From the IMG/VR virus record IMGVR_UViG_3300005294_000013: 20,000 nt of DNA; one strand, given 5' to 3'. Source of the stretch: an uncultured virus (IMG/VR IMGVR_UViG_3300005294_000013). Taxonomy: Duplodnaviria > Heunggongvirae > Uroviricota > Caudoviricetes. Below are positions 1 to 17,067 of the stretch, in pieces (the stretch's first letter is position 1; every line of letters starts with the position of its first letter). The notes under the pieces were generated by a model. That model was not told the origin of the DNA. It made no database searches and saw only the letters and a program-made list of their open reading frames with translations. The translations under genes were made by a program, and so were the position numbers.

Positions 1-3000
1 GCGCTCAACGCTGCGGGTATCGGTCGTCCACCAGAGGGACGGGTTGATTTGGCGCAGTCGCCACTATTACTGACTAACCCCGCTGAGCGTCCGCCGGCAC
101 CTTCTGCCGGGCCGGGCGGCACCCCCCTGTCGGGAGATCCGGCGCGGCTACGTCCCGACCCGCTGACCCAGGGGCCGCCAGCCCGCTATGCTGGTGGAGA
201 AGGTATCGGCGGCACAGCACTGCCGCCGGAGCCAGGGTTAGCAGCACCCCTTCGACCACAATTAGCGTTGCCGCCGCCCGAGCGTCAACTTCTGCTACCG
301 CCGCCTGAAGGAGTACGTGGACCCGGCGGTCCTGGCGACTTCACGATGGGACAGGCACCAGTGCAGCCTGCCCCGATGCGGTCGCCCGGTGGTGCGCCGC
401 TAGGACCAGAGCCGACGCCTGCATCTTTTGTGCGTCCGCAACCGGTCGGGCCAGGAGGCATACCGCTGCGGCCAGAGCCCGGTCTGGCGCAGGCTCTGCC
501 GACGCGTCCGCTGGCCGCCGCAGCGGGGCCGGGTGGCGCGCCTCTACCAGCAGAGCCTTACCGAGCGGCACCCATACAACGTGGTGCGCCGCCACCAGGC
601 GCCGGTCCCGGCGGTACGCCGCTGGGGCCGGAGCCGTACCCCTCGGCACCGGTACGTCCACCGTCTCCCATGGGCGCTGGGCCGGGGGGTACACCTCTAC
701 CCGGCGAGATTGCCCCCGCAGCGACGGCGCGAGCCGCAGCCGTGGGGCCAGGTGGAGCACCATTGCGGCCGGAGCCAACACCGGCACCAGCTCCACCCCG
801 TCCAGCGCCTATCCCGGCAGGACCGGGTGGCGCACCCCTGCCGGCGGAGCCGGTACGCCGGGTTCCCCGGCGCGTGCAGCTTCCAGGGGAGAGCCCTGGC
901 GGCACCCCGTTGCCGGAGCAGCAACAGCGCGCGGCTGCCCCCCGCCGGCTCGAGCAAGCGGTACGGGGTGAAGGATTTACCACCCAGCCAGGGCGCGTCG
1001 AGCGGCGCCCCAGCGAGGGATTAAGCCACGAGGAACTAGGCCAGCGCCTCGCAGACCTGGGGGTGTCGCAGAAGGTACGCGAGCGGCTGGTTAGCCGCAC
1101 GGCACGGGCGGCAGCGCTCGATCAGATAGAAGAGATGCGAGCCCGCGGGAGGGAAGAGCCAGCGCCGGCTCCTCGTGGGGCTGAAGCACGGGAGCCGGCA
1201 CCGGCCGCTCGCCCGAGCGAGGGCATGAGCCACAAGCAACTGGGCGAAGCACTCGAAAAACTTGGGCTTTCTAAGAAGGAAGTCAACCAGTTCGTTAATA
1301 AAGTGCAGCGCGCTGCCGCGTATGACCGGCTGGTGCGGCAGGAAGCGGAGGCGATCGAGCGGGTTTCTGGGACTAGAAAAGGCGAAGGAGAACAACCCAC
1401 CACCATCCGCACCGTTATGGAGGCGGGGCCTGACGAAACCAAGGGGCATCCCGCAGGTGAGCGCGAGGATGCTGCGTGGCGTAAGCTGAAGCCCGAGCGC
1501 ACGGTTAGCGGCAGCTACAAAGGCGCGCCGGAGTGGGTAACGAAGCCTCGGCACCTGAAGCAGCTTCGCAACTTGATGAAGCAACTGATTAAAGAAGGAG
1601 AGAAAGGCCGGTACTGGTACGAAGACAGTATGAAGAAAATCATGCAGGTAACTCGCGGGAATCTGCGTGAAGCGGAGCGGGTGACTGGGCTTATCGCGAT
1701 CTACTCGCCGCAGCGCCCAGTGCCTACCAATACAGGTTTCGCCGTTAAAGCTTACGGGCAGTGGCGCCGGGGCGAGCCCATCCGCGTTGGCAGCGAAGCG
1801 CAGGATCTTAAGGCGAAGCAGTGGCTTGATAGCGGCCAGGACTGGGGTGGGCGCAAGACCAATAATTTCTACCTCAACTTGATGCACGAGCTGATCACGG
1901 CCCACCCCGAGGTGCTAGAGCCTGGTAATAACCGGCTCAACCTGCCACCCGACGTTACCGCGGCGATCAAAGGTGCGACAGTCGATCTGTGGGTGCTACG
2001 CGCTCTAGGTCACCGAGTAGATTCTGCTGGCGGTGTTACCGCGACAGGCAGTGCTGCCACTAAGTATGGGTTCTCTGAGCTTGAGATTAAGCGCCTTGCC
2101 GGGGAACTTAACGCGAGTGTGCCAGTGGGCGAGCAGCGCTGGCTGCCGCACCAAGTCCAGGCCGCGCTGTGGAGTGCGATCAAGGCCAGGTTTGAACTGA
2201 AGTCCGTTAAGGCTGCTACCTGGGCGGAGAGCGAAGCCGCTGGCTTCGCCAAGCGGAACCCGGAAACTGGTAAGCTTGAGGCGCCGTCGAAGAATGGCCC
2301 TGAACGCCAGGGGCATATGGCAATTTGGCGCAAACACGCGCTGGCGGCCGATCCCGCGGATGTGGCACGCGTCATCGATATCGCTCGTGGCGATTTTGGT
2401 GCTGCCCTCGAGCGTATGGCGCAGCATATCACCGTCGAGGCAATCCCCTCGAAAGACCTAAACCATCCGGTGTTTAACGCAAGCCGTGAAGCTCGCGACC
2501 AGTTTACTCGTGAGGCGTTTGACCTCATAACCGATGAAGACGGTAACGATTTAGTCGCTCAGAAGCTCGGCGTTGATCTGGGGTATCGAACCCCTGGGTC
2601 CGGCAGCTATGAGGGTAGGGTCAATCCCAACGTCGTTACCACGCTGATACCTGAGAAACCGGCGGGCTTCTTCGATGCGGTAAAAGCGCGGCAGTACGCT
2701 CGTGCGGTTCAGTACATTTTCAGACAAGACGCGGTGCCGATATTCCGCGCAGACCAGGCGCATAAATTTGGGCCGGATTTCTATCTGGTCGATAAGGACG
2801 GTAACAGGGTTGTCGACGACAAAGGGCGTCCCCTTAACCGGTTCCGTACCCAGGAAGACGCGCAGGCGGCTGCCGACCAGCGCACCGCCGCGGGGGAACT
2901 GACGACTATCAGGGGCGACAAAATAGCGCACGGTGCGCGGTTGGTATTTAAAGACGCTTTTGACGAAGCAAGCGAGCAGCGACTACTTACCGCCCTTGGT

Positions 3001-6000
3001 AGGGAACTTGGCGATGATGCCGGCTTTACTAAGATAGGTGATAATGAAGCAGTAGTTGTCAACTTTCGTGGTGACGACGGGTTACCGTTTATCGCTAAAG
3101 ATCGTGACTTTCGTGCCGCAGTTGATCGGATCGTTGCAGATACCGATATAGGGGTGGATCATGTAACGCATTTTGCGTTGGAGGGTGAATATGGCCCAGT
3201 CCAAGACTGGAAGGGAGGATCTGCTCCCGCACGAGGCTTGGCCGCCGACGCCGGCGGATCACCCGATTTTCAACGGTACCTTCAGGATCGGCATGCGGCG
3301 TTCGGGAAGCTCCTCGACGACTGGAGCGACCCCGAGGCCCGCCTCGCCGCCTCCCAACCCCGAGACGGAGGAGGAGTCGGACCTAGCGGGCGGTCTACCC
3401 TAGAACTACCGCAAGCCCGCGCGCCGCCCGACCAGAGGGCGGCGCGGGAACGTGCCGCCGAGAGGCGCGCCGCTGGGGTTGAAGCAACCCCTGAAGATCT
3501 ACCACCGCCGCGCGAGGATCGCCCCCTAGACGCCTCGCGCGCTCAGCGCGACCAGCCCACCGCCGAGAGCCCGCTGTCGCGGGTAATGAAAGACCCCAGG
3601 GTTAACGACCCGGTGCGCGCTGCCATCGATGCAGGCGGCAGTCTGCACGATGGGCTGCGGGCGATCGCCAACGACCCCTATACCAACCGGCGCCTGCCGC
3701 ACGTCGCGGCCTATGCGCGCACTATGCTCCGCCTCGCACCGGATTTGGAGCTACGCCCGTCGGAGACAGTGCGGCGCGGCGCCTTTGTGTCGGACTTAGA
3801 TCTCACGACAGGGCGGCGCGCCGAGCACATCCAGGTCCGCGAGAAGTCGGCGGAGGTGCTGCTACACGAGGCGACGCATTCAGTTGCCGGACACTACATC
3901 GACAGTCTGCAACCCGGCTCGCGTGAGTTTCAGGTGCTCACCACGATCCGCGACGAGTTTAGGCGCGGCGCCGAGGCGCATGGCCGGCTGGGCGACGAGC
4001 AGGTTGCCTACGCGCTGAGTAACCCGCACGAGCTGCACTCGATGCTCCGCACCAACCCGGAGATGCACGATTTGATGCGGGGCATCGTGCCCACCGCTGA
4101 GTACCGCGCCCGCATGGCGCAGCTAGGCTACCCCGTCGGCCCGGCTAAGTCCCTCTGGCAGTCCTTCGTCCGCTTCATCCGGCAAGCCCTGAAATTGCCG
4201 CAGAACGTGACCAGCTTGATGGATCACGTCATGCGCCCACTCGACGACATAGCCGAGGCCGGCGCCCGGTATAACCGTGACCTACCAGCTCCGACACGCG
4301 ACAGCGTGGTCTACCGGCGGGGCTGGGAGCAGGAACCCCTCGTCGCCAGGACCGAGCGCGAGTTGCCGACCTTCAGCCAGGTTCGTGACTCCGTCAACGA
4401 GTGGCGTGAGGGGCGCGCCGGGAACGTCTCCTCCGGTTTCCGCCGAGGTGTGCGCCAGGGCATGCCGACGGAGCAGCTCACCGGGTTTAACCGGCATTTG
4501 TTCCAGCCGTCGACCGGTGGGGAGAACCACCTCGATGTGCTGAACCGGGCGATGGAGGGGGTAGAGCGGGTATCGCGGGAGTATGGCGAGCAGCATCAGG
4601 CTGCGGTCACCGCGGCGATAAAGAACCTCAACCCCGAGTCCAACCACGTTATGACCGAGGCGTCCCGCCTCGACATGAACCCGGCCCACCCGCCTAATCA
4701 CCCACTGAATAGCCACAGCCGGGCCACGGCGGACGAGTTCAAGAAGGTAGTGGACGACTACAACAAGCTGTCCGCAGCGCAGAAGCAGGTAGTCACTGAC
4801 ACCTTCGACTTGACCCGCCAGCAGCGCGTCGACCGCGGCGACGCCGCCATGCGCGGCCTCGGCAAAGCGTATCTCGAGGGGGTGAGCGACGCCCAGGTCG
4901 AGACGATGGTCCGGCAAATGCGGACGATGGCGGGCGTCGACGAGATCCTCGCCAACGATACCAACCCCGTCGCACGCGCATTTGGCGACCAGTGGAACAG
5001 CAATCGCGATTTTGTTAAGGCTATAGCGACGGAGTGGAAGCGCGGCTGGATCAACAATTACGTCCCGCTGCACCGCAACGGCGACTGGGTGGTGACTTAC
5101 ACCGACCCCGACACCGGTCAGCCAGGCATGCTGTCCCGCTACACGAGGCACGAGGCGGAGGTGGCGCGACAAAAGCTAATTGACGAGGGAGCCGAGCCGT
5201 CGCTGGTGCTGTCGCGCGAGCGTAGGACGCCGAGCGATATCCCCCGGCTGTCGATCGTCGACGAGTTTGCCGCCAAGCTGGAGCGCAAGTTCGGCCCCGA
5301 GGGGCGCGCCCAAGCCGACGCGGCGCGCGAACTCTTGACCAAGGTCATGTTGGACCAGTCACGCTTCGCCGGCACCATGCGGAAGCGCCTAGGGGTGCAC
5401 GGCGCCGACCCGAGCAAGCTGGGCGAGGCGATGAGCCAGAATTTCCTCGCACTGAAAAACGCGATGGGGCACCTGGAATACGGCCCGCAATACGACGCTG
5501 GGCTCGCCGCCATGCGCCGTCACGTCGGCGAGATGGGGCGCGGCGCCAACACGGTGAAAGTCCGCGGCGAGAACCCCACCAGCGCCGACGTGATCCAGGC
5601 GCAGCAAGTTCTCGAAGAGTTTCAGCGTCGCAAGCCAGTCAGTGAAGACCCCAACAACATCCTGCTGAAGTCGGTCAACAACGCGACGATGTTCACCTAC
5701 TTTAAGTTCCTCGCCTCGCCGGCCCAGACCGTGATGAATGGCATCGAGACGTATATGCAGGGTATCCCCCGCATCGGTGCTCAGTTCGGTCTGGGTCGGG
5801 CTACGACGGCGATGGCTCGCGCGTCCGCGGAGATCATGCCCCGGCAGTTTGCCCGCGGCCTGGCCGGCACTAAGGACGTGGCGCTGCGGCGCCTCGATCC
5901 CGGCGAGTGGAACAGCGGCGATCAGATCAGGGATCACCTGATCCAGAACAGTCGACGCAACGATGCGGCCGGGATCACCGCGTTGTTTAAGCGGCTACAG

Positions 6001-7296
6001 GACGGCAACCTGATTGGCTATAGCAGCTATCGTGACCTCCAGAACATGGCGAAGGGCACCAGCGGTCGGCTGCGCGGCGCGGTCGACATGGCGACGGATT
6101 TTGTCTCGATTCTCCATAATAAGATGGAGGACGCGAATAGGGCGGTGACCGCACTAGCCGCCTACGATGTGCATCTGCAAAAGCACGGCGATCGCGCGGC
6201 GGCGATCGACTACGCGGATCGAATCCTGCGTAAGGCGCAGCCTAACTTCAACCTGTCGAACAAGCCACGCTTCGCCACGCCGCAGGGTAGTTTCGGTGCC
6301 TGGGGTATCCCCGTCGCACAGTTTCGCCAGCACGGCATGTGGGCATACAGCCAAATGGCCCTCGATATCCGCAACGCCTTCAAGGGCGCCGACGCCGCAA
6401 CAAAGACCGAGGCCCGCTACGCCCTGGCGTTCACCATCGGCATGCAGACGGTGCTGCTCGGGGCGCTTAACTGGCTGGCCGACCCGCTGCGGTACCTCTG
6501 GGGCGCCTATGATTTCCTCTCTGGCGGTAAGCCGCAGAACCACGAACACGATTTCCGCATGGCTGCCGCTAAAATATTTGGTACGACCGGCGGCGAGTTG
6601 TTCTCCCGTGGATTATCGCGAGGGCTGGGCTACGGTCCAGACATTTCCCACCGCGTCGGTATGATCAACCCACTCCTGATACCGGAGTTCAAGGGCGACT
6701 TTAGAAACCCCCAAGATGTGACCTACGCCGCGGTGACCGCGCTTGCCGGGGCGCCGGCGATCGGTGCGGGCTCGGAGGTTCTGACTGGCCTCGCTAATTT
6801 CGGCGCCGGTAACATCACGCAAGCCGTAACCGATCTTGTGCCAAAAGTTATTCGTGATCCGCTCAAAGCTTACCGCGGCGAAACCGAGGGGCAGGTAAGC
6901 CGGCGCGGCAACATCCAGCAGACGCCGGAACAAATATCAACCCTCGACACCGTGTACCAAGTGTTTGGCTTCAAGTCTGCGCGTCAGGGCGAGCGCAGCG
7001 AACAGACGGGTTCTCAGCGGCAGCTCTTGGATCAAATCAGAACCAGTCGCGAGGCAGCAACAAAAGAAGCGGCGCACGCTCTAATCAATGGTTCTGCGAG
7101 CGAGCGACGCGCTGCAAACGAGATGGTTGTTGCTCATAACAGGCGCTACCCCGGCTCGCAGATCGATCCGAAAGATGTCTTCGCTTACCGCAAGCGCGAG
7201 ATCGAGAGGTTGCGCGACCCCACACTGACATCAATAACTGTTCCCAAGGGGTTGCAGCCGGCGGTGAGACAGGCTGGAGCATTTGCTAACTACTAA
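1..7296 (+). CDS. Giant polyvalent protein, probable internal virion/ejection protein (5'-truncated by the window)
   Basis: Frame is open from base 1 (ALNAAGIGRPPEGRVD precedes the TTG at 49). Motifs: WY..YSPQ..KTNNF..TVDLW..QVQAALW (~1606-2184), HEATH (3865-3879), YVPLHRNGDW (5059-5088, PLxRFG-like), and a helical C-terminus (EDANR..A.AAY..QF) typical of such proteins. Confidence 0.85.
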   Translation, partial: ALNAAGIGRPPEGRVDLAQSPLLLTNPAERPPAPSAGPGGTPLSGDPARLRPDPLTQGPPARYAGGEGIGGTALPPEPGLAAPLRPQLALPPPERQLLLPPPEGVRGPGGPGDFTMGQAPVQPAPMRSPGGAPLGPEPTPASFVRPQPVGPGGIPLRPEPGLAQALPTRPLAAAAGPGGAPLPAEPYRAAPIQRGAPPPGAGPGGTPLGPEPYPSAPVRPPSPMGAGPGGTPLPGEIAPAATARAAAVGPGGAPLRPEPTPAPAPPRPAPIPAGPGGAPLPAEPVRRVPRRVQLPGESPGGTPLPEQQQRAAAPRRLEQAVRGEGFTTQPGRVERRPSEGLSHEELGQRLADLGVSQKVRERLVSRTARAAALDQIEEMRARGREEPAPAPRGAEAREPAPAARPSEGMSHKQLGEALEKLGLSKKEVNQFVNKVQRAAAYDRLVRQEAEAIERVSGTRKGEGEQPTTIRTVMEAGPDETKGHPAGEREDAAWRKLKPERTVSGSYKGAPEWVTKPRHLKQLRNLMKQLIKEGEKGRYWYEDSMKKIMQVTRGNLREAERVTGLIAIYSPQRPVPTNTGFAVKAYGQWRRGEPIRVGSEAQDLKAKQWLDSGQDWGGRKTNNFYLNLMHELITAHPEVLEPGNNRLNLPPDVTAAIKGATVDLWVLRALGHRVDSAGGVTATGSAATKYGFSELEIKRLAGELNASVPVGEQRWLPHQVQAALWSAIKARFELKSVKAATWAESEAAGFAKRNPETGKLEAPSKNGPERQGHMAIWRKHALAADPADVARVIDIARGDFGAALERMAQHITVEAIPSKDLNHPVFNASREARDQFTREAFDLITDEDGNDLVAQKLGVDLGYRTPGSGSYEGRVNPNVVTTLIPEKPAGFFDAVKARQYARAVQYIFRQDAVPIFRADQAHKFGPDFYLVDKDGNRVVDDKGRPLNRFRTQEDAQAAADQRTAAGELTTIRGDKIAHGARLVFKDAFDEASEQRLLTALGRELGDDAGFTKIGDNEAVVVNFRGDDGLPFIAKDRDFRAAVDRIVADTDIGVDHVTHFALEGEYGPVQDWKGGSAPARGLAADAGGSPDFQRYLQDRHAAFGKLLDDWSDPEARLAASQPRDGGGVGPSGRSTLELPQARAPPDQRAARERAAERRAAGVEATPEDLPPPREDRPLDASRAQRDQPTAESPLSRVMKDPRVNDPVRAAIDAGGSLHDGLRAIANDPYTNRRLPHVAAYARTMLRLAPDLELRPSETVRRGAFVSDLDLTTGRRAEHIQVREKSAEVLLHEATHSVAGHYIDSLQPGSREFQVLTTIRDEFRRGAEAHGRLGDEQVAYALSNPHELHSMLRTNPEMHDLMRGIVPTAEYRARMAQLGYPVGPAKSLWQSFVRFIRQALKLPQNVTSLMDHVMRPLDDIAEAGARYNRDLPAPTRDSVVYRRGWEQEPLVARTERELPTFSQVRDSVNEWREGRAGNVSSGFRRGVRQGMPTEQLTGFNRHLFQPSTGGENHLDVLNRAMEGVERVSREYGEQHQAAVTAAIKNLNPESNHVMTEASRLDMNPAHPPNHPLNSHSRATADEFKKVVDDYNKLSAAQKQVVTDTFDLTRQQRVDRGDAAMRGLGKAYLEGVSDAQVETMVRQMRTMAGVDEILANDTNPVARAFGDQWNSNRDFVKAIATEWKRGWINNYVPLHRNGDWVVTYTDPDTGQPGMLSRYTRHEAEVARQKLIDEGAEPSLVLSRERRTPSDIPRLSIVDEFAAKLERKFGPEGRAQADAARELLTKVMLDQSRFAGTMRKRLGVHGADPSKLGEAMSQNFLALKNAMGHLEYGPQYDAGLAAMRRHVGEMGRGANTVKVRGENPTSADVIQAQQVLEEFQRRKPVSEDPNNILLKSVNNATMFTYFKFLASPAQTVMNGIETYMQGIPRIGAQFGLGRATTAMARASAEIMPRQFARGLAGTKDVALRRLDPGEWNSGDQIRDHLIQNSRRNDAAGITALFKRLQDGNLIGYSSYRDLQNMAKGTSGRLRGAVDMATDFVSILHNKMEDANRAVTALAAYDVHLQKHGDRAAAIDYADRILRKAQPNFNLSNKPRFATPQGSFGAWGIPVAQFRQHGMWAYSQMALDIRNAFKGADAATKTEARYALAFTIGMQTVLLGALNWLADPLRYLWGAYDFLSGGKPQNHEHDFRMAAAKIFGTTGGELFSRGLSRGLGYGPDISHRVGMINPLLIPEFKGDFRNPQDVTYAAVTALAGAPAIGAGSEVLTGLANFGAGNITQAVTDLVPKVIRDPLKAYRGETEGQVSRRGNIQQTPEQISTLDTVYQVFGFKSARQGERSEQTGSQRQLLDQIRTSREAATKEAAHALINGSASERRAANEMVVAHNRRYPGSQIDPKDVFAYRKREIERLRDPTLTSITVPKGLQPAVRQAGAFANY
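100..920 (+). repeat. About 11 degenerate coding repeats, consensus (A/V)GPGG(T/A)PLxxEP
   Basis: Read from the translation: AGPGGTPLSGDP, SPGGAPLGPEP, VGPGGIPLRPEP, AGPGGAPLPAEP (twice), AGPGGTPLGPEP, AGPGGTPLPGE, VGPGGAPLRPEP, SPGGTPLPE, plus weaker copies. Confidence 0.9.
1009..1345 (+). repeat. Two copies of a ~40-aa helical module
   Basis: PSEGLSHEELGQRLADLGVSQKVRERLVSRTARAAALDQI (from 1009) and PSEGMSHKQLGEALEKLGLSKKEVNQFVNKVQRAAAYDRL (from 1213). Confidence 0.85.
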
Positions 7297-7310: not shown

Positions 7311-7526
7311 ATGAACCCAGCCGGGCTGGCGCAAGCAGTAGTAGAGGCAGCAAACCCTCTCCCCCAAAATCGGTTTAACGCCGCTCGTGGATATATAGAA
7401 CGACAACCGTGTATGAACCCACTAGGGCCGTTAGTGTGGACTACCGTCGAGGCGCGAGTGTTTGCAAAAGCGGGGAGCCGTTGGCGGGATATGACCAACG
7501 GGGTGTTTTGGATGGTAGGTGAGTGA
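7311..7526 (+). CDS. Hypothetical protein (71 aa)
   Basis: GGAG 6 nt before ATG 7311; stop overlaps the next start (GTGATG). Confidence 0.6.
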   Translation: MNPAGLAQAVVEAANPLPQNRFNAARGYIERQPCMNPLGPLVWTTVEARVFAKAGSRWRDMTNGVFWMVGE

Positions 7527-7747
7527 TGGGTTCTTTAATCATCGGATTGTTGTGGGTACTTCTGGCGGTAGTTCTTATCGCTGGAGTGTTCCTCGCCGTG
7601 CTCTGGGTATTGCGCTATATCGGTCTGCCGGTGCCGCCCCAGGTAGACAAATTCGGGTTATTGATCATCGCCCTGCTGGCGTTGATCTGGATAGTCACGC
7701 TGGTCCTCGGCGGTGCTGCGCCGTTCCACGGGTTATCTCTGAAATGA
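7523..7747 (+). CDS. Small two-TM membrane protein (possible holin)
   Basis: Two long hydrophobic segments separated by RYIGLPVPPQVDK; coupled to both neighbours. Confidence 0.7.
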   Translation: MMGSLIIGLLWVLLAVVLIAGVFLAVLWVLRYIGLPVPPQVDKFGLLIIALLALIWIVTLVLGGAAPFHGLSLK

Positions 7748-7931: not shown

Positions 7932-8180
7932 ATGGATATACTGGCTGCCGCGTTGTCTCTGATCCTGTTGCACCGGGCGGACGGTGGTGAGGTCGCGGTT
8001 ATCCCAGCCCACATCGCCAGCATACACGCAAAGGCGCCGCCGACAGACGCAAAAAATAAATTGCTCTCTCCGGCAGCGCGCTGCGTCCTCTGGATGGACG
8101 ACGGCAAACTACTCGCGGTGTTGGAAACCTGCGACGCGATTAAGAAATTATTGGATGAGGCGACGGGCGAGCTAAAATGA
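7932..8180 (+). CDS. Small hypothetical protein, beta-rich, faint FlbD-like pattern
   Basis: ATG 5 nt after the previous stop; LILLHRADGGEVAVIPAHIASI...VLETCDAIKKLL pattern. Confidence 0.65.
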   Translation: MDILAAALSLILLHRADGGEVAVIPAHIASIHAKAPPTDAKNKLLSPAARCVLWMDDGKLLAVLETCDAIKKLLDEATGELK

Positions 8181-8294
8181 CGACGCCAGCCTGGGGAGTC
8201 CCAATGACTCAGGCTGGCGTCGGGACGCCGGGGCCGACTGGCAACCCCGGCATCTAGGAGGGAACGATGGATCAGACCCGTCGTAAACTCCTGC
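8174..8294 (-). ncRNA. Putative antisense (antitoxin) sRNA, ~120 nt
   Basis: Lies between a near-consensus minus-strand promoter (8328-8300) and a hairpin plus U-rich tail (8222-8174); complementary to the RBS and start of the 26-aa ORF. Ends are inferred. Confidence 0.6.
8181..8222 (-). terminator. Strong hairpin, probable terminator of the antisense RNA
   Basis: cgacgccagcct (8181-8192) pairs with aggctggcgtcg (8211-8222), with an inner gagtc/gactc stem; followed on the minus strand by TCATTTT. Confidence 0.65.
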
Positions 8295-8347
8295 TACTGA
8301 CTATACGGTTTGGACCCTTTCGGGTCAAGATCGTCATAGCTCTGTAG
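8267..8347 (+). CDS. 26-aa cationic hydrophobic peptide MDQTRRKLLLLTIRFGPFRVKIVIAL, putative type I toxin
   Basis: Strong SD (AGGAGG, 8256-8261) before ATG 8267; double TAG stop; followed by a GC hairpin. Too short for the ORF track. Confidence 0.7.
   Translation: MDQTRRKLLLLTIRFGPFRVKIVIAL
8300..8328 (-). promoter_or_regulatory. Sigma70-type promoter TTGACC-N17-TATAGT inside the peptide ORF
   Basis: Minus strand reads cTTGACC cgaaagggtccaaaccg TATAGT; 5/6 match in each box, 17-bp spacer. Confidence 0.75.
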
Positions 8348-8349
8348 TA

Positions 8350-8387
8350 GGAGGGGGAGCCGGCGTGAGCCGGCTCCCTATCCCTCC
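8350..8387. terminator. GC-rich hairpin between convergent genes
   Basis: gggagccggc-GTGA-gccggctccc (8355-8378), extendable by ggagg/cctcc; no clear U-tract. Confidence 0.6.
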
Positions 8388-8390
8388 GCT

Positions 8391-8792
8391 TCACGCTAGC
8401 ACGTACTTCCGCCCCTCGTTGCGTGCCAGGGTGCCGTTCTTAATCAGCGCAGTCAGTGCGTTGGATACCGCCATCTCGCCTGACTTATCGCCCTTCACGC
8501 CGATTGTTTCGAGCAACTCTCCACGCGCGAGCCCCTCCAGTGGAACTTGACGCAGCGCATCGACAATGGCACTACGCCGACTGCCGGGGCGCCGTTGGTT
8601 TTGGTGTGGGCGGTGAGCCGCTGGTATCTTCCCAGCCTTAGCCGCCGCATAGGCGTCGATCGCCTGCATGTCGCGGTCGAGCTGCGTCAACTGCGTCTCG
8701 ATTTCAATCTTCCGCTCGAGCAGTGCATCGCGCTCGCCGTAGATGCGCGCCCGCTCCTGATCCATGTATTGGGCAAAATCGATCATATTCAT
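8391..8792 (-). CDS. Putative DNA-binding protein: N-terminal coiled coil, basic linker, C-terminal winged helix
   Basis: Heptad-like ERDALLERKIEIETQLTQLDRDMQAI; wHTH-like SRRSAIVDAL..GLARGELLETIG..AVSNALTALIKNGTLARNEGRKY; RBS GGAAGGAG. Confidence 0.75.
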   Translation of the reverse strand: MNMIDFAQYMDQERARIYGERDALLERKIEIETQLTQLDRDMQAIDAYAAAKAGKIPAAHRPHQNQRRPGSRRSAIVDALRQVPLEGLARGELLETIGVKGDKSGEMAVSNALTALIKNGTLARNEGRKYVLA

Positions 8793-8816: not shown

Positions 8817-8845
8817 GAATATACGCAGACCAAACTGTGTTTCAA
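8817..8845 (-). promoter_or_regulatory. Possible promoter TTGAAA-N16-TATATT for the wHTH gene
   Basis: Minus strand reads gTTGAAA cacagtttggtctgcg TATATT in the gap upstream of 8792. Confidence 0.45.
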
Positions 8846-12738: not shown

Positions 12739-14007
12739 ATGGCACGCAGGGCAACGCCGCTGACAGCGCGGCAGGTAGCAACGGCAAAACCAGGGGTCTA
12801 CGGCGATGGGAACGGACTGTTCCTGATCGTCCAGATGAGCGGCGCACGCGCCTGGGAAGTGCGTTACAAGGTCATCACCAGCCAGAAGCGCCGGTCGATG
12901 GGTATCGGCGGCGTCGACCACCCCTACTCTCTGGCAGAAGCGCGCGAGCAGGCGCGCGCGATCCAGAAGGCGGCGAAGCTCGGCATCGATCCACGGGTCG
13001 AGCGGGCGCAACAGCGGGGGGAGGCAGCCAAGGTAGACGAGACGACCTTTCGATCCTTTCGATTCTGCGCTGAAGGATATATCGCAAGCCATCGATCTGC
13101 TTGGAAGAGCGCTCAGCATGCTCAAGACTGGGAGAGGTCGCTGACCAACCACGCCTACCCTCTCCTGGGTGATAGGCCGGTGCAGGACATTACCGCGCTC
13201 GATGTGTTGGAGGTGTTGCAGCCGATCTGGTTGAAGATCCCCGAGACAGCCAGCCGGGTCCGCAACCGCATCGAGCTGGCGATCGACTGGGGCATCGCGA
13301 TGGGTCATCGCACCAACGAGGCGAACCCGGCGCGCTGGGCCGGTAAGCTGCGAATGCTGTTGCCGTCGCCGACCAAGGCCGCTGCGATGGAGCGTCTCAC
13401 CAGCGGTCGACGAGAGCATTTCGACGCGCTCCCCTGGCAGGAGCTGCCCGCCTTCGTCGCACGCCTGCGTGAGTACGAGTCCCTAACGGCGCGAGCGCTT
13501 GAGTTCACCATCCTCACCGTCGCTCGTACCAACATGACGCGGGCCGCGGAGTGGAACGAGGTCGATTTCGACGCGCGGGTGTGGACGGTCCCGGCGGTGC
13601 GGATGAAGATGGGTAAAGCCCACGAGGTACCCCTATCAGACCGGGCGGTAGAAATCCTAATCCAGCAAAAGGAATACGCCGATCGTACTCGCTCAAAGTT
13701 TATTTTCCCCGGCGTCGATCCACAACGGCCCATCCACGATAACACAATGTACACGTTTCTAAAACGATACATGGGGCGTGACGATATCACTGTGCATGGT
13801 TTCCGCTCTACCTTCCGGCAGTGGGTAGCGGATAAAGAACTGCCACCTGACGCAGCCGAGATGGCGCTGGCTCATACCCTCGGCAAGGTGTTAGGGGCAT
13901 ACCAACGCAGTAAGCTGTTGGACCGGCGACGCCACCTGATGGATGCGTGGGCTAGGTTTATCTCCGGCGAAGACACGACAGTTATTGCGTTCCCAGTTCG
14001 AGCTTAG
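12739..14007 (+). CDS. int: P4-type tyrosine integrase with an arm-binding N-terminal domain
   Basis: YGDGNGLFLIV..GARAW..MGIG..SLAEARE N-terminus; catalytic R (VAR), K (RMK), HGFR, LAH and Y (GAY). Confidence 0.96.
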   Translation: MARRATPLTARQVATAKPGVYGDGNGLFLIVQMSGARAWEVRYKVITSQKRRSMGIGGVDHPYSLAEAREQARAIQKAAKLGIDPRVERAQQRGEAAKVDETTFRSFRFCAEGYIASHRSAWKSAQHAQDWERSLTNHAYPLLGDRPVQDITALDVLEVLQPIWLKIPETASRVRNRIELAIDWGIAMGHRTNEANPARWAGKLRMLLPSPTKAAAMERLTSGRREHFDALPWQELPAFVARLREYESLTARALEFTILTVARTNMTRAAEWNEVDFDARVWTVPAVRMKMGKAHEVPLSDRAVEILIQQKEYADRTRSKFIFPGVDPQRPIHDNTMYTFLKRYMGRDDITVHGFRSTFRQWVADKELPPDAAEMALAHTLGKVLGAYQRSKLLDRRRHLMDAWARFISGEDTTVIAFPVRA

Positions 14008-14164
14008 CTAGGAACTCGCTGGGTGGGGTAATAATGATACGTACCCTGCCCAGCTTTACCGTTTTAATTTTCTTGTCTTTGATCAGCCGCCACGTCCCAG
14101 CCCGCGAGATACCTACTTTTGGATACCACTCGCTGACCCGCCATCCTTGCTTTTCGTCATTCAT
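13982..14164 (-). CDS. xis: Excisionase / AlpA-like winged HTH (60 aa)
   Basis: WRVSEWYPKVGISRAGTWRLIKDKKIKTVKLGRVRII; start overlaps the helicase stop; adjacent to int. Confidence 0.82.
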   Translation of the reverse strand: MNDEKQGWRVSEWYPKVGISRAGTWRLIKDKKIKTVKLGRVRIIITPPSEFLAKLELGTQ

Positions 14165-16418
14165 ATTTATCCCTCGACGGTAGGTCTGATGGTTGGGGGT
14201 TATCCTTACGCACATTATCGAGGACGTGCGTTAGCTGCGGGTGTCGTAGATCAAACTCGACACACCGTGTGAGGTACGCTCCTGGTGGGTTAGCCCGGTT
14301 GGATTTACCTATCGTAGCGTGTTTAGCAGCGTCAATCTTCCATCTTAGTTCCATATCTTTTCTGAGTTGTTTCCAGTTGATATGATATTTCCTACACCAT
14401 TCAATTAGAGTGTAGCGGTTGACCCGCATCACCTCATCCTCAAGCGCAATATGTATTTCTATACGTTTAGCATTTTGGTTTGGGTACCGTATCGCAACGG
14501 GTATGGTTTTTGTATTAAGATTAGTACTCATAATATCGGTCACTAAAGTCTCTTGCTGGAACGACGATATAAATTTATCCAGCACCTCCTCGGCACCCTG
14601 GGCTAGAACTATTGCTTCCCCCCGCTCGCGGCGAAGGCTGTTAAAGTTGGTAAATAAGAAATCCCGCATGCTGGCGAGGTCGAAATTAACTAGTTTTAGG
14701 TGAAATGCGTATAAAGCGCCGAGTAAGATACAGGTAATAAATCCAATATAAAACCGCTCGCCAGCTTGTGGCTTAAGTATCTCCACAAGCTGCCTAGTGA
14801 AAGTGTGGTAGTCGTTTTGTACTCTATCCATGTTTTGCGCCAGCCACGCTGCGTATACCGCGCCGGCAGTACCACGGTTAGCCTCAAACGCACCTACCAG
14901 ACTCGTATCCGTATTGCCTTCGTACATTGTTTGGAGGGGGAATGAAAATAAACGCAACGCCCCCGCATCGGTCGTCGCACCAGTCATGTGGATTACATCA
15001 TCCATAATTTCCTGGTTTGTTGTAATCACACATATGCTACTCCACGCATTCACCTTACGCGCCGCCGCGTTGCGGTCGAGCCGGAGTTTGTCGCTACCCT
15101 CCGATATCGAGAACAACATCTCGATAACTCGCTTACTACTATCATCATCGTAAATCCTAATCTCATCGAGGTACTGCGGCATCGAGTGCCACTTACCCAG
15201 CCGATCGCTAATAGCGTTGACGGTATCTCGCAGCTTGATGTGGTTACCATGCCACGAGGTCCACACCGACTGCCCCGCGGCGGCAGCGGTGGATTTAGCA
15301 GTACCGGACGCGCCATAGGTCGAAGCGATTAGCCCCCCGCCAAAATGCCCGAGCTGGACTAGCGGTGCTGCGAAGGCGGCGGCCACGACGATTTGTATAT
15401 CCGGCCGATCCTTGATCAGGGTGTTTACCGCCTGGGTCCAAGGCTCACGCTTGCCCTTTGGTGTGAAGTCAGCCGCCATGATCGGGTCGGAACAGACAAT
15501 CGACCGGGTGCTGCCATCGGGCTGGTACAATATGTCCCCAACAGCAAACCCGGCCTTGCTCCAGGTACAAGGTTTGATATCGTCATGCACCTGCATCATA
15601 TTTTCTAAATGTTTGATCCAGGCCACGAGAAATCTCCCAAACGTCTTTGCTTCGTGATCGTGTAGTGTGATGTGCTGCCGCGCAAAATATTGTCGAGCAT
15701 GCTGCTCGGTAGGGATCGATACCTCGTCGAAATAAACATAATGTCCAGGGTTGTGGGTAAAAGACAGACGATACCCTTCCGCTAATTTGATCAACCGCGG
15801 TGCGACGACCATGCTTTTTATCACCGCCACCCAGTCGGCCTCGCCCGACTTGTCGACCAGGCGGGCCTCGAGCCAGCCCTGGGCGCGCCGGTAGCCCACC
15901 GGCATATCCCAGTTCTCGACACCGAGGCTGAGCGGCGAGCGGATGTGGCCCCAGTGCGGGCAGCTCGGACACACGTCTCGCCGGTAGCCGTGGTATTTGG
16001 TGCAGGTGGGAAGCCCCAGAGCCTTGCGGGTGCGCTCATCGTGCGCTCGCTGCAACTCCGCGTCGGTGTCAGTCCTCGAGTAGGCAGCGTGCCCCTGCCC
16101 CAGCCGGTGCGCGTACTCGTCGCCGTCAACGCACCCGGTTGCTAGCGTGACGTGCCCCAGGTACCAGAGGTCGCGTGAATCCTGCGCGCCGCCGGTCGCC
16201 AGCGAGGTCTTTACTTGGGCGCAGCGCTCGGCGATCAATGCCATGTAGTGCGGCCGGCGCTCGATGCCGGTCTGCACCGCGGCGTTGAGCCCCTCGTGCC
16301 CAGCGAAGGCGCTGGAGGGGCCTCCGCTCAAGCCGCTGTCGGTGGGTTCGCGCTGTTCGACGAGGTGCTTGTAGGGCGCTAGGGCGGCGTCTAGCTCCCC
16401 CCTGTCAATCGGTCCCAT
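14157..16418 (-). CDS. Cys-cluster domain plus DUF927-type P-loop helicase (C-terminal part of a primase-helicase)
   Basis: PTC..CPSCPHWGHIRSP Cys cluster; AAAFAAPL; Walker A-like GASGTAKST; Walker B YLDE; EGSDKLRL; GALRL; NRGTAG. First credible ATG at 16418. Confidence 0.85.
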   Translation of the reverse strand: MGPIDRGELDAALAPYKHLVEQREPTDSGLSGGPSSAFAGHEGLNAAVQTGIERRPHYMALIAERCAQVKTSLATGGAQDSRDLWYLGHVTLATGCVDGDEYAHRLGQGHAAYSRTDTDAELQRAHDERTRKALGLPTCTKYHGYRRDVCPSCPHWGHIRSPLSLGVENWDMPVGYRRAQGWLEARLVDKSGEADWVAVIKSMVVAPRLIKLAEGYRLSFTHNPGHYVYFDEVSIPTEQHARQYFARQHITLHDHEAKTFGRFLVAWIKHLENMMQVHDDIKPCTWSKAGFAVGDILYQPDGSTRSIVCSDPIMAADFTPKGKREPWTQAVNTLIKDRPDIQIVVAAAFAAPLVQLGHFGGGLIASTYGASGTAKSTAAAAGQSVWTSWHGNHIKLRDTVNAISDRLGKWHSMPQYLDEIRIYDDDSSKRVIEMLFSISEGSDKLRLDRNAAARKVNAWSSICVITTNQEIMDDVIHMTGATTDAGALRLFSFPLQTMYEGNTDTSLVGAFEANRGTAGAVYAAWLAQNMDRVQNDYHTFTRQLVEILKPQAGERFYIGFITCILLGALYAFHLKLVNFDLASMRDFLFTNFNSLRRERGEAIVLAQGAEEVLDKFISSFQQETLVTDIMSTNLNTKTIPVAIRYPNQNAKRIEIHIALEDEVMRVNRYTLIEWCRKYHINWKQLRKDMELRWKIDAAKHATIGKSNRANPPGAYLTRCVEFDLRHPQLTHVLDNVRKDNPQPSDLPSRDKYE

Positions 16419-17067
16419 AATTTGCCGCTGGGGTGAGCGTGTCCCATAGGACTGTAACCGGCATCGGCTGCTCTGGGATTTTATGGTTGCGCGTGTTAGG
16501 AGGGCGCAGGATGCGGCTAGCGTCGCTGGTAATCTGGACATCGCCAGGAGCCTTATGGGCGATCAACGCCGCCTTCACCAACTCAGCACGAGGCTGCCAC
16601 TCAACACGTAGGAAAGTTTGGTCAATGACCCAATACAAGTGTACGCCGTAACCGCTGCGTATGGCTAAATTAGGTTGTGGTATTTTCAAATTGGCGACGA
16701 AGCTTCTAACCTCATTTAAATTAGCAAAGCAACGAGATGGGTCTTTACCATCACCATCGCGTTTAATATCGGCGTCATACCAAAAACATTGCAGTCGATC
16801 GACATTGGCGTGGGTCCGTTCCCCCTTGTATTTTGGGTTTCCCAGCGGATCGTGTCCCGTAGCCTCCGCTAATTTAAACGATGCCGGGGAATACCAGACA
16901 TCCATGTTCTTGCCATCAGCCCAGCGGATGAACGAGGCCGCTTCCTGGGTGCTTGCTCGGGGAAAAAATCTTGTCCCCATCGGTTTACCCGGCCCCTTGT
17001 AGCAGACTGCGAAGAACGCACCGGGCGCAACAACGCTCGCCAGAAATGTGGCGGTATCCATCAGCAA
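16405..17067 (-). CDS. RepB/AEP-type primase catalytic domain
   Basis: FWYDAD (DxD), SGYGVHLYW and DASRILRPPNTRNHK motifs. Start may be the ATG at 17061. Confidence 0.88.
   Translation of the reverse strand: MLMDTATFLASVVAPGAFFAVCYKGPGKPMGTRFFPRASTQEAASFIRWADGKNMDVWYSPASFKLAEATGHDPLGNPKYKGERTHANVDRLQCFWYDADIKRDGDGKDPSRCFANLNEVRSFVANLKIPQPNLAIRSGYGVHLYWVIDQTFLRVEWQPRAELVKAALIAHKAPGDVQITSDASRILRPPNTRNHKIPEQPMPVTVLWDTLTPAANYGTD

Follow-up and report, generated by a model that had tools for sequence, protein, structure and literature searches.

Introduction

Toxin-antitoxin systems of type I are characterized, in the portions of the T1TAdb preprint drawn on here, by an mRNA of 150–400 nt that codes for a protein of 20–60 aa. 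An antisense RNA of 60–200 nt and sequestration of the Shine-Dalgarno (SD) sequence in cis by an anti-SD also belong to the class. The closest described relatives of the locus studied in this work are the aapA/IsoA systems, which the same preprint, in those portions, places in Helicobacter and Campylobacter. AapA1 of this group is a peptide of 30 aa with a charge of +7, helical by NMR according to the sections of PMC8309996 cited here. In hok/Sok, as outlined in excerpts of PMC6733600 and the T1TAdb preprint, a stable, silent full-length mRNA with a metastable fold is activated by 3' trimming and faces an antisense RNA to its 5' part. Ibs, Fst/Ldr, TisB and SprA/SprG are likewise small membrane-type peptides repressed by antisense RNA and often found on mobile elements, and all membrane type I toxins covered in the cited sections of PMC8309996 have a helical transmembrane domain. 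The prophage-borne hokW-sokW (PMC8621323) is a further small type I system of this kind.

Here, we analyze a 20,000-nt stretch of DNA (the window) from an uncultured virus of the Caudoviricetes (IMG/VR record IMGVR_UViG_3300005294_000013). An initial annotation had proposed mutually exclusive RNA folds that hide and expose the ribosome-binding site of a short ORF, with delayed activation as in hok and aapA. We consider it likely that a temperate phage carries here, within about 220 bp, a self-contained cassette that resembles type I toxin-antitoxin systems and is timed by an RNA clock like that of aapA. The cassette belongs to a family without library match that looks type I toxin-antitoxin-like and appears built like Helicobacter aapA/IsoA. 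Judged against the relevant passages of PMC5416894 and PMC6733600, the likeness covers an antisense promoter embedded in the toxin ORF; an antisense RNA, predicted here, with at least two stem-loops over leader, SD and start codon; hairpins that mask the SD in succession, one of the anti-SDs lying inside the ORF; and a long-range lock of the full-length mRNA, opened in aapA by loss of the 3' end and here a computed lock with predicted processing. A TAAAAT -10 box, ghost copies, a link to mobile elements and a short, cationic, hydrophobic peptide are also shared. The helices, the length-dependent access, the conservation of ORF and antisense promoter and the spread of the family were all obtained by computation. 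Our literature search returned no description of the family; the supplements of Fozo 2010 (>2000 predicted toxin ORFs) and T1TAdb may hold relatives, and the consulted parts of the main text of Fozo 2010 do not mention Alphaproteobacteria, rhizobia or Caulobacter.

Results

Phage setting and layout of the cassette

The window is part of a temperate phage, with an integrase (12739–14007), a Cro-like gene and primase/helicase-type genes. The cassette lies where plus-strand late genes, among them a small membrane protein gene (7523–7747) on the same strand as the cassette, meet a convergent gene for a 133-aa protein. The features are:

7932..8180, plus strand: upstream phage gene, 82 aa (context); its last codons overlap the -10 box
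8173..8178, plus strand: TAAAAT, putative -10 box for transcription of the peptide mRNA; it marks the border of the cassette on the 5' side, and the DNA upstream of it changes completely
8181..8222, plus strand: 5' mRNA hairpin, -32.0 kcal/mol, whose minus-strand counterpart is the 3' hairpin of the antisense RNA
8227..8251, plus strand: second hairpin of the leader, -15.4 kcal/mol, present in some family members only
8256..8263, plus strand: Shine-Dalgarno sequence AGGAGGGA
8264..8284, plus strand: start-codon hairpin, 7 bp with a 7-nt loop, -8.1 kcal/mol, in all three states; loop variable
8267..8347, plus strand: ORF of 26 codons, MDQTRRKLLLLTIRFGPFRVKIVIAL, net charge +5; putative membrane-active toxin
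8288..8293, plus strand: first anti-SD, within the ORF (fold A, nascent RNA); P 0.98 in the window
8288..8353, plus strand: long ORF hairpin (fold B), -36.6 kcal/mol; P 1.00 in the window
8354..8379, plus strand: 3' hairpin, -25.2 kcal/mol, with a U tail on neither strand
8381..8387, plus strand: second anti-SD, SD lock in the full-length RNA; P 1.00 in the window
8300..8328, minus strand: antisense promoter, TTGACC (8328–8323), 17 nt, TATAGT (8305–8300); 10 of 12 consensus, sigma-70-type
8172..8293, minus strand: predicted antisense RNA of about 120 nt with three stem-loops, complementary to leader, SD and first nine codons
8391..8792, minus strand: convergent gene, 133 aa, no putative function assigned (context)

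The mRNA would start near 8184–8185. With its predicted ends it measures about 205 nt (8184–8388), within the type I size range, as is its 26-aa product. Its -35 element is only weak (TTGGAT, 8151–8156) and not conserved, and its -10 box is absent from the promoter-scan output for the window. On the opposite strand, the -10 box bases form the short U tail after the last hairpin of the antisense RNA. A terminator search of the window called none at the cassette. The 3' hairpin is likely a stop for a 3' exonuclease, a role assigned by inference.

The 82-aa protein has 31 relatives in viral contigs. A 12-base stretch at its gene's end (window 8174–8186; 2725–2736 in the related loci L070, L071 and L072) is repeated at the cassette start of L070–L072. 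In these loci, about 0.8–0.95 kb of other DNA separates the 82-aa gene from the cassette. It looks as if this intervening DNA has been deleted from the window, apparently by recombination.

For the 133-aa protein, 171 relatives were found, one of them named from an Alphaproteobacteria MAG; no family match was found for it, and in most family members its gene is not adjacent to the cassette. A promoter matching 10 of 12 consensus positions lies in front of the gene (8818–8845, minus strand). The gene may be expressed in the lysogen. The nearest cultured relatives are Rhizobium phages for the replication gene and include Sinorhizobium and Bradyrhizobium phages for the capsid of a family member, and the window integrase is nearest to Azospirillum replicons. 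The carrier phages probably infect Alphaproteobacteria, a host deduced from the replication gene, capsid, integrase and 133-aa relatives only.

Elsewhere in the window, 49–7296 codes for a virion-type protein of 2415 aa with a Pro-rich N-terminus and a DarB-like C-terminal part. At 14160–17067, a primase-polymerase part (16405–17067) and a DUF927 helicase part (14157–16541) lie in separate overlapping frames; both match phrog_25314, as in a split gene or a frameshift. The GC content is 0.47–0.48 at 14001–15000 and about 0.60 elsewhere.

RNA folds and access to the Shine-Dalgarno sequence

Folding of 8170–8400 gave -142.2 kcal/mol, compared to -87.4 ± 5.0 kcal/mol for 200 shuffles, none of which was as good (z -11.0). 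All helices named in the initial annotation are confirmed: in fold A, TAGGAG (8255–8260) pairs with CTCCTG (8288–8293) and ACGATGG (8264–8270) with CCGTCGT (8278–8284); in fold B, CTCCTGCTAC (8288–8297) pairs with GTAGTAGGAG (8344–8353), with a GACCC-TTTC-GGGTC cap from 8313; and the second anti-SD, TCCCTCC (8381–8387), matches GGAGGGA (8257–8263). When ever longer transcripts were folded, three folds appeared as unforced minimum-energy structures at successive lengths, and the computed access to the SD changed with length: closed for transcript ends at about 8290–8350, open at 8352–8383 and closed again from 8388. Opening the SD costs 7.1–8.8 kcal/mol at 3' ends 8292–8348, where 8288–8293 closes it (fold A). 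At 3' ends 8352–8380 the cost falls to 0.3–1.2 kcal/mol because 8344–8353, lying over the stop codon, draws the first anti-SD into the 66-nt ORF hairpin, so that fold B frees the SD as anticipated. At 3' ends 8388–8412, with the SD closed by 8381–8387, it rises to 9.5–10.6 kcal/mol. The full-length fold is fold B plus the second anti-SD, i.e. a third state. Fold B is more stable than fold A by 4.4 kcal/mol, and fold B with the 3' lock by 10.8 kcal/mol.

The proposal that exclusive folds hide and expose the ribosome site holds for the SD helix of 5–6 bp, which is exchanged, but not for the start-codon hairpin, which is constant. Fold A does close the SD as proposed, but the burial of the AUG is not specific to it, since the AUG hairpin has a probability of 0.97–0.98 in all states. 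Opening the stretch from SD to AUG costs about 8 kcal/mol in the open state versus 13–19 kcal/mol in the closed ones, and fold B leaves the AUG paired. The switch consists of one exchanged helix; therefore, trimming would open the SD without refolding. The idea of fold A as a long-lived metastable trap is contradicted by a computed direct-path barrier from A to B of only 3.6 kcal/mol; with so low a barrier, the protection of the nascent RNA by fold A would last no longer than synthesis of the ORF.

Search for family members

Record G001 is 100% identical to the window across the cassette. With blastn, the window cassette had no match among phages and one short chance match among plasmids, and the other members behaved likewise. 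Following relatives of the flanking genes uncovered the cassette in three phages: L070 and L071, at 82% and with 21 of 26 peptide residues identical, and L072, which is deleted from mid-ORF. A first covariance model built on three sequences gave diverged copies; it matched 9 of 30 related records, six of them among the 10 near-complete ones, and did not match the other 21 (four near-complete). Pattern searches returned 32 loci for the -10 box plus 5' hairpin (19 family, 13 chance) and five for the 3' hairpin (three true, two chance). Peptide-derived patterns found only their own record in viral contigs, one further locus being chance; the 59 metagenome loci retrieved by such a pattern, of which 19 were also scanned with the first covariance model, included none that was homologous by translation.

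With the second covariance model, 17 of 60 records had strong places, 20 in all, one of them without a start codon; five weaker places are all broken copies. Together, the covariance models yield 19 intact copies in 17 of the 60 records, at several unrelated phage sites, and six broken copies; this is not a frequency, because the 60 records were selected. Partial matches to the second model (model positions 78–127) occur in G015, G018, G019 and G021. A genome scan gave a single match, in a Lachnospiraceae MAG, which had no match to the second model and was set aside as chance, and three cultured rhizobial phages and two Azospirillum replicons had no match to this model (0/5).

Fourteen distinct intact copies were analyzed, leaving out the near-duplicates L071, L118, L136, L150 and L155. 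They form eight clusters at 75% identity, and those outside the window's cluster are 44–55% identical to the window. It should be mentioned that these copies were retrieved in part with patterns and models derived from the same features that were then counted.

Conservation of the RNA switch

A dip in SD access of at least 3 kcal/mol between the nascent and full-length forms is present in 13 of the 14 members and in none of 48 SD-led phage control genes, the transcript lengths sampled having been chosen after a first look at the members. Only L119 has no dip. This profile supports the delayed-activation reading within the limits of what sequence can show. Fold A is paired in 92.3% of 130 cells, compared to 31–44% for slid controls, and both sides are changed in 4 of 10 pairs; none of 500 shuffles reached this covariation, a measure that related sequences can inflate. 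Column-wise covariation was counted for fold A only, and folds B and C, being out of register between lineages in the alignment, were scored by per-sequence probabilities. Fold B has P >0.5 in only 7 of 14 members and the 3' lock in 8 of 14; the first anti-SD exceeds this value in 11 of 14, with 96% of cells paired. All changes of L070 in fold B keep the pairing. In the L140/L141/L145/L158 group and in L138, fold A is computed to rival fold B after trimming. SD sequestration in cis by an anti-SD, as in the type I class, is computed here, with covariation for fold A.

Among the individual hairpins, both sides are changed in two pairs of the 5' hairpin (window versus L070), in 3 of 6 counted pairs of the start-codon hairpin and in 7 of 11 consensus pairs of the 3' hairpin. 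The 5' hairpin has a counterpart in all 14 predicted antisense folds. L070 keeps the start-codon stem identical, with most loop bases different. The second leader hairpin is present in the window, L070, L115, L116 and L138 and absent from the other nine members. GGAG is normally spaced ahead of the start codon in 14 of 14. The -10 box, in the seven copies found without a pattern requiring it, reads TAAAAT in four and TAGAAT in one and is weaker in two. Similarity to L070 and L071 ends at the second anti-SD. In L120, L137 and L138, a GC hairpin with an opposite-strand U tail lies just upstream of the -10 box, at the place of the -35 element.

A conserved antisense promoter inside the ORF

A predicted antisense gene with its promoter inside the ORF, absent from the initial annotation, completes the type I layout. 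The same promoter pattern with the exact 17-nt spacer occurs in 14 of 14 members, compared to 32 of 5610 background tiles. The pattern is written in fixed codons (Lys AAG in 13/13, GTC/ATC in 13/13, and a codon 7 starting with A in 13/13), with variable neighbors. The RNA would start around 8293, opposite the first anti-SD, and run across AUG, SD and leader to the hairpin at 8181–8222 and its short U tail. Its folding z in the window is -6.7. In the 14 members, the predicted antisense RNAs have two or three stem-loops and always start opposite the first anti-SD, and their length of 74–124 nt falls within the type I range.

The peptide

The reading frame carries a coding signal: in 13 aligned members it is open in all 13, the +1 frame is stopped in all 13, and the second codon position is the least variable. 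The peptides of the family have 22–27 aa, a charge of +5 to +9 and 33–56% Ile/Leu/Val; their start is basic, their core hydrophobic, and one Lys is invariant. The C-terminus is hydrophobic in the window and R or K in 11 of 14. The strand-type moment exceeds the helix-type moment in 14 of 14 peptides, which may therefore resemble alternating strands more than a transmembrane helix; we offer this only as a hypothesis because AapA1, the by-eye lookalike, is itself helical. No match was found for 13 family peptides in Pfam, NCBIfam and PHROGs (E 1) or PDB (E 10), for the cassette in Rfam, or for the window peptide by tblastn against plasmids and phages at E 10. Exact look-up of ten family peptides in a protein collection found one present.

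Sites, broken copies and traces of mobility

The cassette occurs in either orientation relative to neighboring genes. In L163 and L187 it faces the major capsid gene at that gene's end; it adjoins RuvC-like genes in L166, L167, L169, L176 and L177 and HNH or endonuclease VII genes in L168, L178, L181 and L182, lies close to a repressor in L170 and follows a RecT-like gene in L188. G023, G025 and G028 each hold two unlike copies whose loops differ. In all six broken copies (L072, L114, L129, L134, L149, L176) the peptide is lost, and in five of the six the antisense promoter is partly or wholly lost, while it is present in all 14 intact ORFs; some truncated copies could be assembly errors. This pattern of sites and broken copies is expected of a toxin tied to its antitoxin.

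In L070 (3783–3870), and also in L071, a frameshifted second copy of the ORF region lies directly behind the cassette, with its own antisense -35 element and spacing. Its alignment score in L070 is 80, compared to 42.8 ± 5.0 for shuffles (0/1000). The second copy suggests a tandem duplication followed by decay. The first codons of the RuvC-like gene stand on both sides of the cassette in L176 (1427–1660), L167 (1406–1670) and L161, a repeat that resembles the target duplication left by an insertion. At the end of the major capsid gene in L138 (1153–1377, minus strand), a group I intron (RF00028, 74.8 bits, above gathering) adjoins the cassette. Three broken copies and an intact relative, among L178, L181, L182 and L168, adjoin the HNH or endonuclease VII genes; insertion of a homing endonuclease may have broken such copies.

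Comparison with known type I systems

The cassette differs from aapA/IsoA in several respects. There is one nascent anti-SD here, not two, and no upstream anti-SD hairpin; the stop-codon region takes over the anti-SD in the ORF, and trimming leaves the fold of the leader as it is. The consensus length of AapA is 30 aa, whereas the family has 22–27 aa and no library match, the AapA content of those libraries being unconfirmed. A gapless comparison of AapA1 with the window peptide, made by eye only, gives 6–7 identities in 21 residues, a level without significance for peptides of this kind; in this by-eye register the antisense -10 box of AapA1 lies about four codons earlier. For AapA, a helical transmembrane segment with basic C-terminal residues is described; here a strand-type moment dominates in 14 of 14 peptides, which may point to another structure, and 11 of 14 end in R or K. 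The host range also differs, since the carriers here are GC-rich phages, probably of Alphaproteobacteria.

The cassette is nevertheless closer to aapA/IsoA than to hok. Translation of hok, whose product has about 50 aa, proceeds through a leader ORF. Such an ORF is not conserved here: the 17-codon frame from 8204 in the window is absent from L070, and no conserved upstream frame was found in the members inspected. Searches for a Hok/Gef-family peptide or a Sok RNA gave no Pfam, NCBIfam or Rfam match. In contrast to the helical toxins Ibs, Fst/Ldr, TisB and SprA/SprG, the peptides here have a strand-like periodicity and match no family model. Microcystis MsoT1 (63 aa, two helices) was considered and is unrelated.

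Discussion

For the transcripts, 3' trimming, kissing loops, toxicity and biological role, we reason by analogy with aapA/IsoA and hok/Sok. A promoter near 8173, together with read-through from the late genes, would yield an mRNA for the 26-residue cationic hydrophobic peptide. In the nascent RNA, the anti-SD of the ORF would shut the SD while the ORF is transcribed, until the stop-codon region takes this anti-SD away. About 34 nt further, the second anti-SD behind the 3' hairpin would lock the SD, giving a stable silent store; in the gap while 8352–8387 is made, only the AUG hairpin and the antisense RNA would provide cover. Slow 3' trimming to the hairpin (about 8380) would drop the second anti-SD and free the SD, with the AUG hairpin staying. 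The antisense RNA of about 120 nt would pair with leader, SD and AUG and remove the trimmed form, its pairing probably beginning loop to loop; such contacts are probable because the loops are the variable parts. Once the antisense supply stops, by loss of the prophage or by shut-off of transcription by another phage, the trimmed mRNA would be translated and the peptide could damage the host membrane. The role could be prophage maintenance or abortive infection.

Several findings count against this likely reading. The low A-to-B barrier leaves the SD free while about 30 nt are transcribed, the AUG hairpin still has to be opened at about 8 kcal/mol when the SD is accessible, the mRNA lacks a conserved -35 element and a called terminator, fold B and the 3' lock are clear in only 7 and 8 of 14 members, L119 has no dip, the 14 sequences amount to only eight clusters, and the strand-like peptide is unlike described type I toxins.

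The strongest competing explanation, which we regard as rather unlikely, keeps the cassette and its antisense control but drops 3' trimming as the activating step. Translation might be governed by nothing more than the antisense RNA and the AUG hairpin, the open form might come from termination at the 3' hairpin, or it might be a short-lived intermediate in late phage transcription. A 3' end undefined by a terminator, the barrier of 3.6 kcal/mol, and the marginal fold B and 3' lock in about half of the members would all fit this explanation, but a pyrimidine-rich SD complement right after the 3' hairpin recloses the SD in 13 of 14 members, and similarity stops just past the second anti-SD.

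The peptide could instead be a lysis helper or another phage effector (single-gene lysis, outer-membrane disruptor), silent in the lysogen and not an addiction or defense toxin. We assign this a small probability: the window cassette does follow late genes on the same strand, one for a small membrane protein, and the peptide is cationic and hydrophobic, but elsewhere the cassette adjoins the capsid operon or RuvC-like, repressor or RecT-like genes, 21 of 30 related records, including four of the 10 near-complete ones, gave no match, and broken copies are common. The broken copies and unrelated sites speak against a fixed lysis role and also against a leader for the next gene. The latter explanation, a non-coding structured RNA or leader/attenuator with the ORF as a by-product of hairpins and promoter, has only a slight chance of being correct. 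It would suit the RuvC-linked group and L137, where the next gene starts just past the second anti-SD on the same strand, and pairing and promoter do constrain the ORF bases; but the next gene in the window is convergent, and eight clusters at 44–55% identity to the window have preserved the frame, the SD spacing, the length and the charge/hydrophobic pattern. Chance hairpins or bidirectional terminators between convergent genes, conceivable where plus- and minus-strand genes meet at the cassette in DNA of 60% GC, have a negligible probability in view of the z of -11, the lack of a U-tailed terminator and the recurrence of the whole unit at unrelated sites with compensatory changes, family evidence that already contradicts them.

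Within the preferred reading, that of a type I-like cassette with an aapA-like clock, we also put forward a doubtful but specific extension. The unit may be a mobile addiction or abortive-infection cassette of 170–220 bp in temperate phages of soil-type Alphaproteobacteria, with a cysteine-free, cationic beta-hairpin toxin and an antitoxin promoter held in fixed codons, an arrangement in which toxin and antitoxin would be lost jointly in most deletions. Its origin could then lie in a remote kinship with Helicobacter aapA/IsoA or in a separate evolution of the same RNA clock. If true, the beta-hairpin would be a fold unreported for type I toxins in the literature examined.

Type I systems are hard to find and have been described mostly from enterobacteria, Firmicutes and Helicobacter. 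The family described here is carried by temperate phages whose hosts probably belong to a different group, and it includes eight or more diverged versions, copies that occur in pairs and natural knock-outs. It offers a compact test case for an mRNA that would time its own activation, by one helix swap and no refolding. The covariance model can be used to find more members, and the family allows a test of a single versus a double origin of the aapA design. The peptides themselves are natural, short and cationic, possibly with a new fold, and may act in prophage maintenance or in phage-phage conflict.
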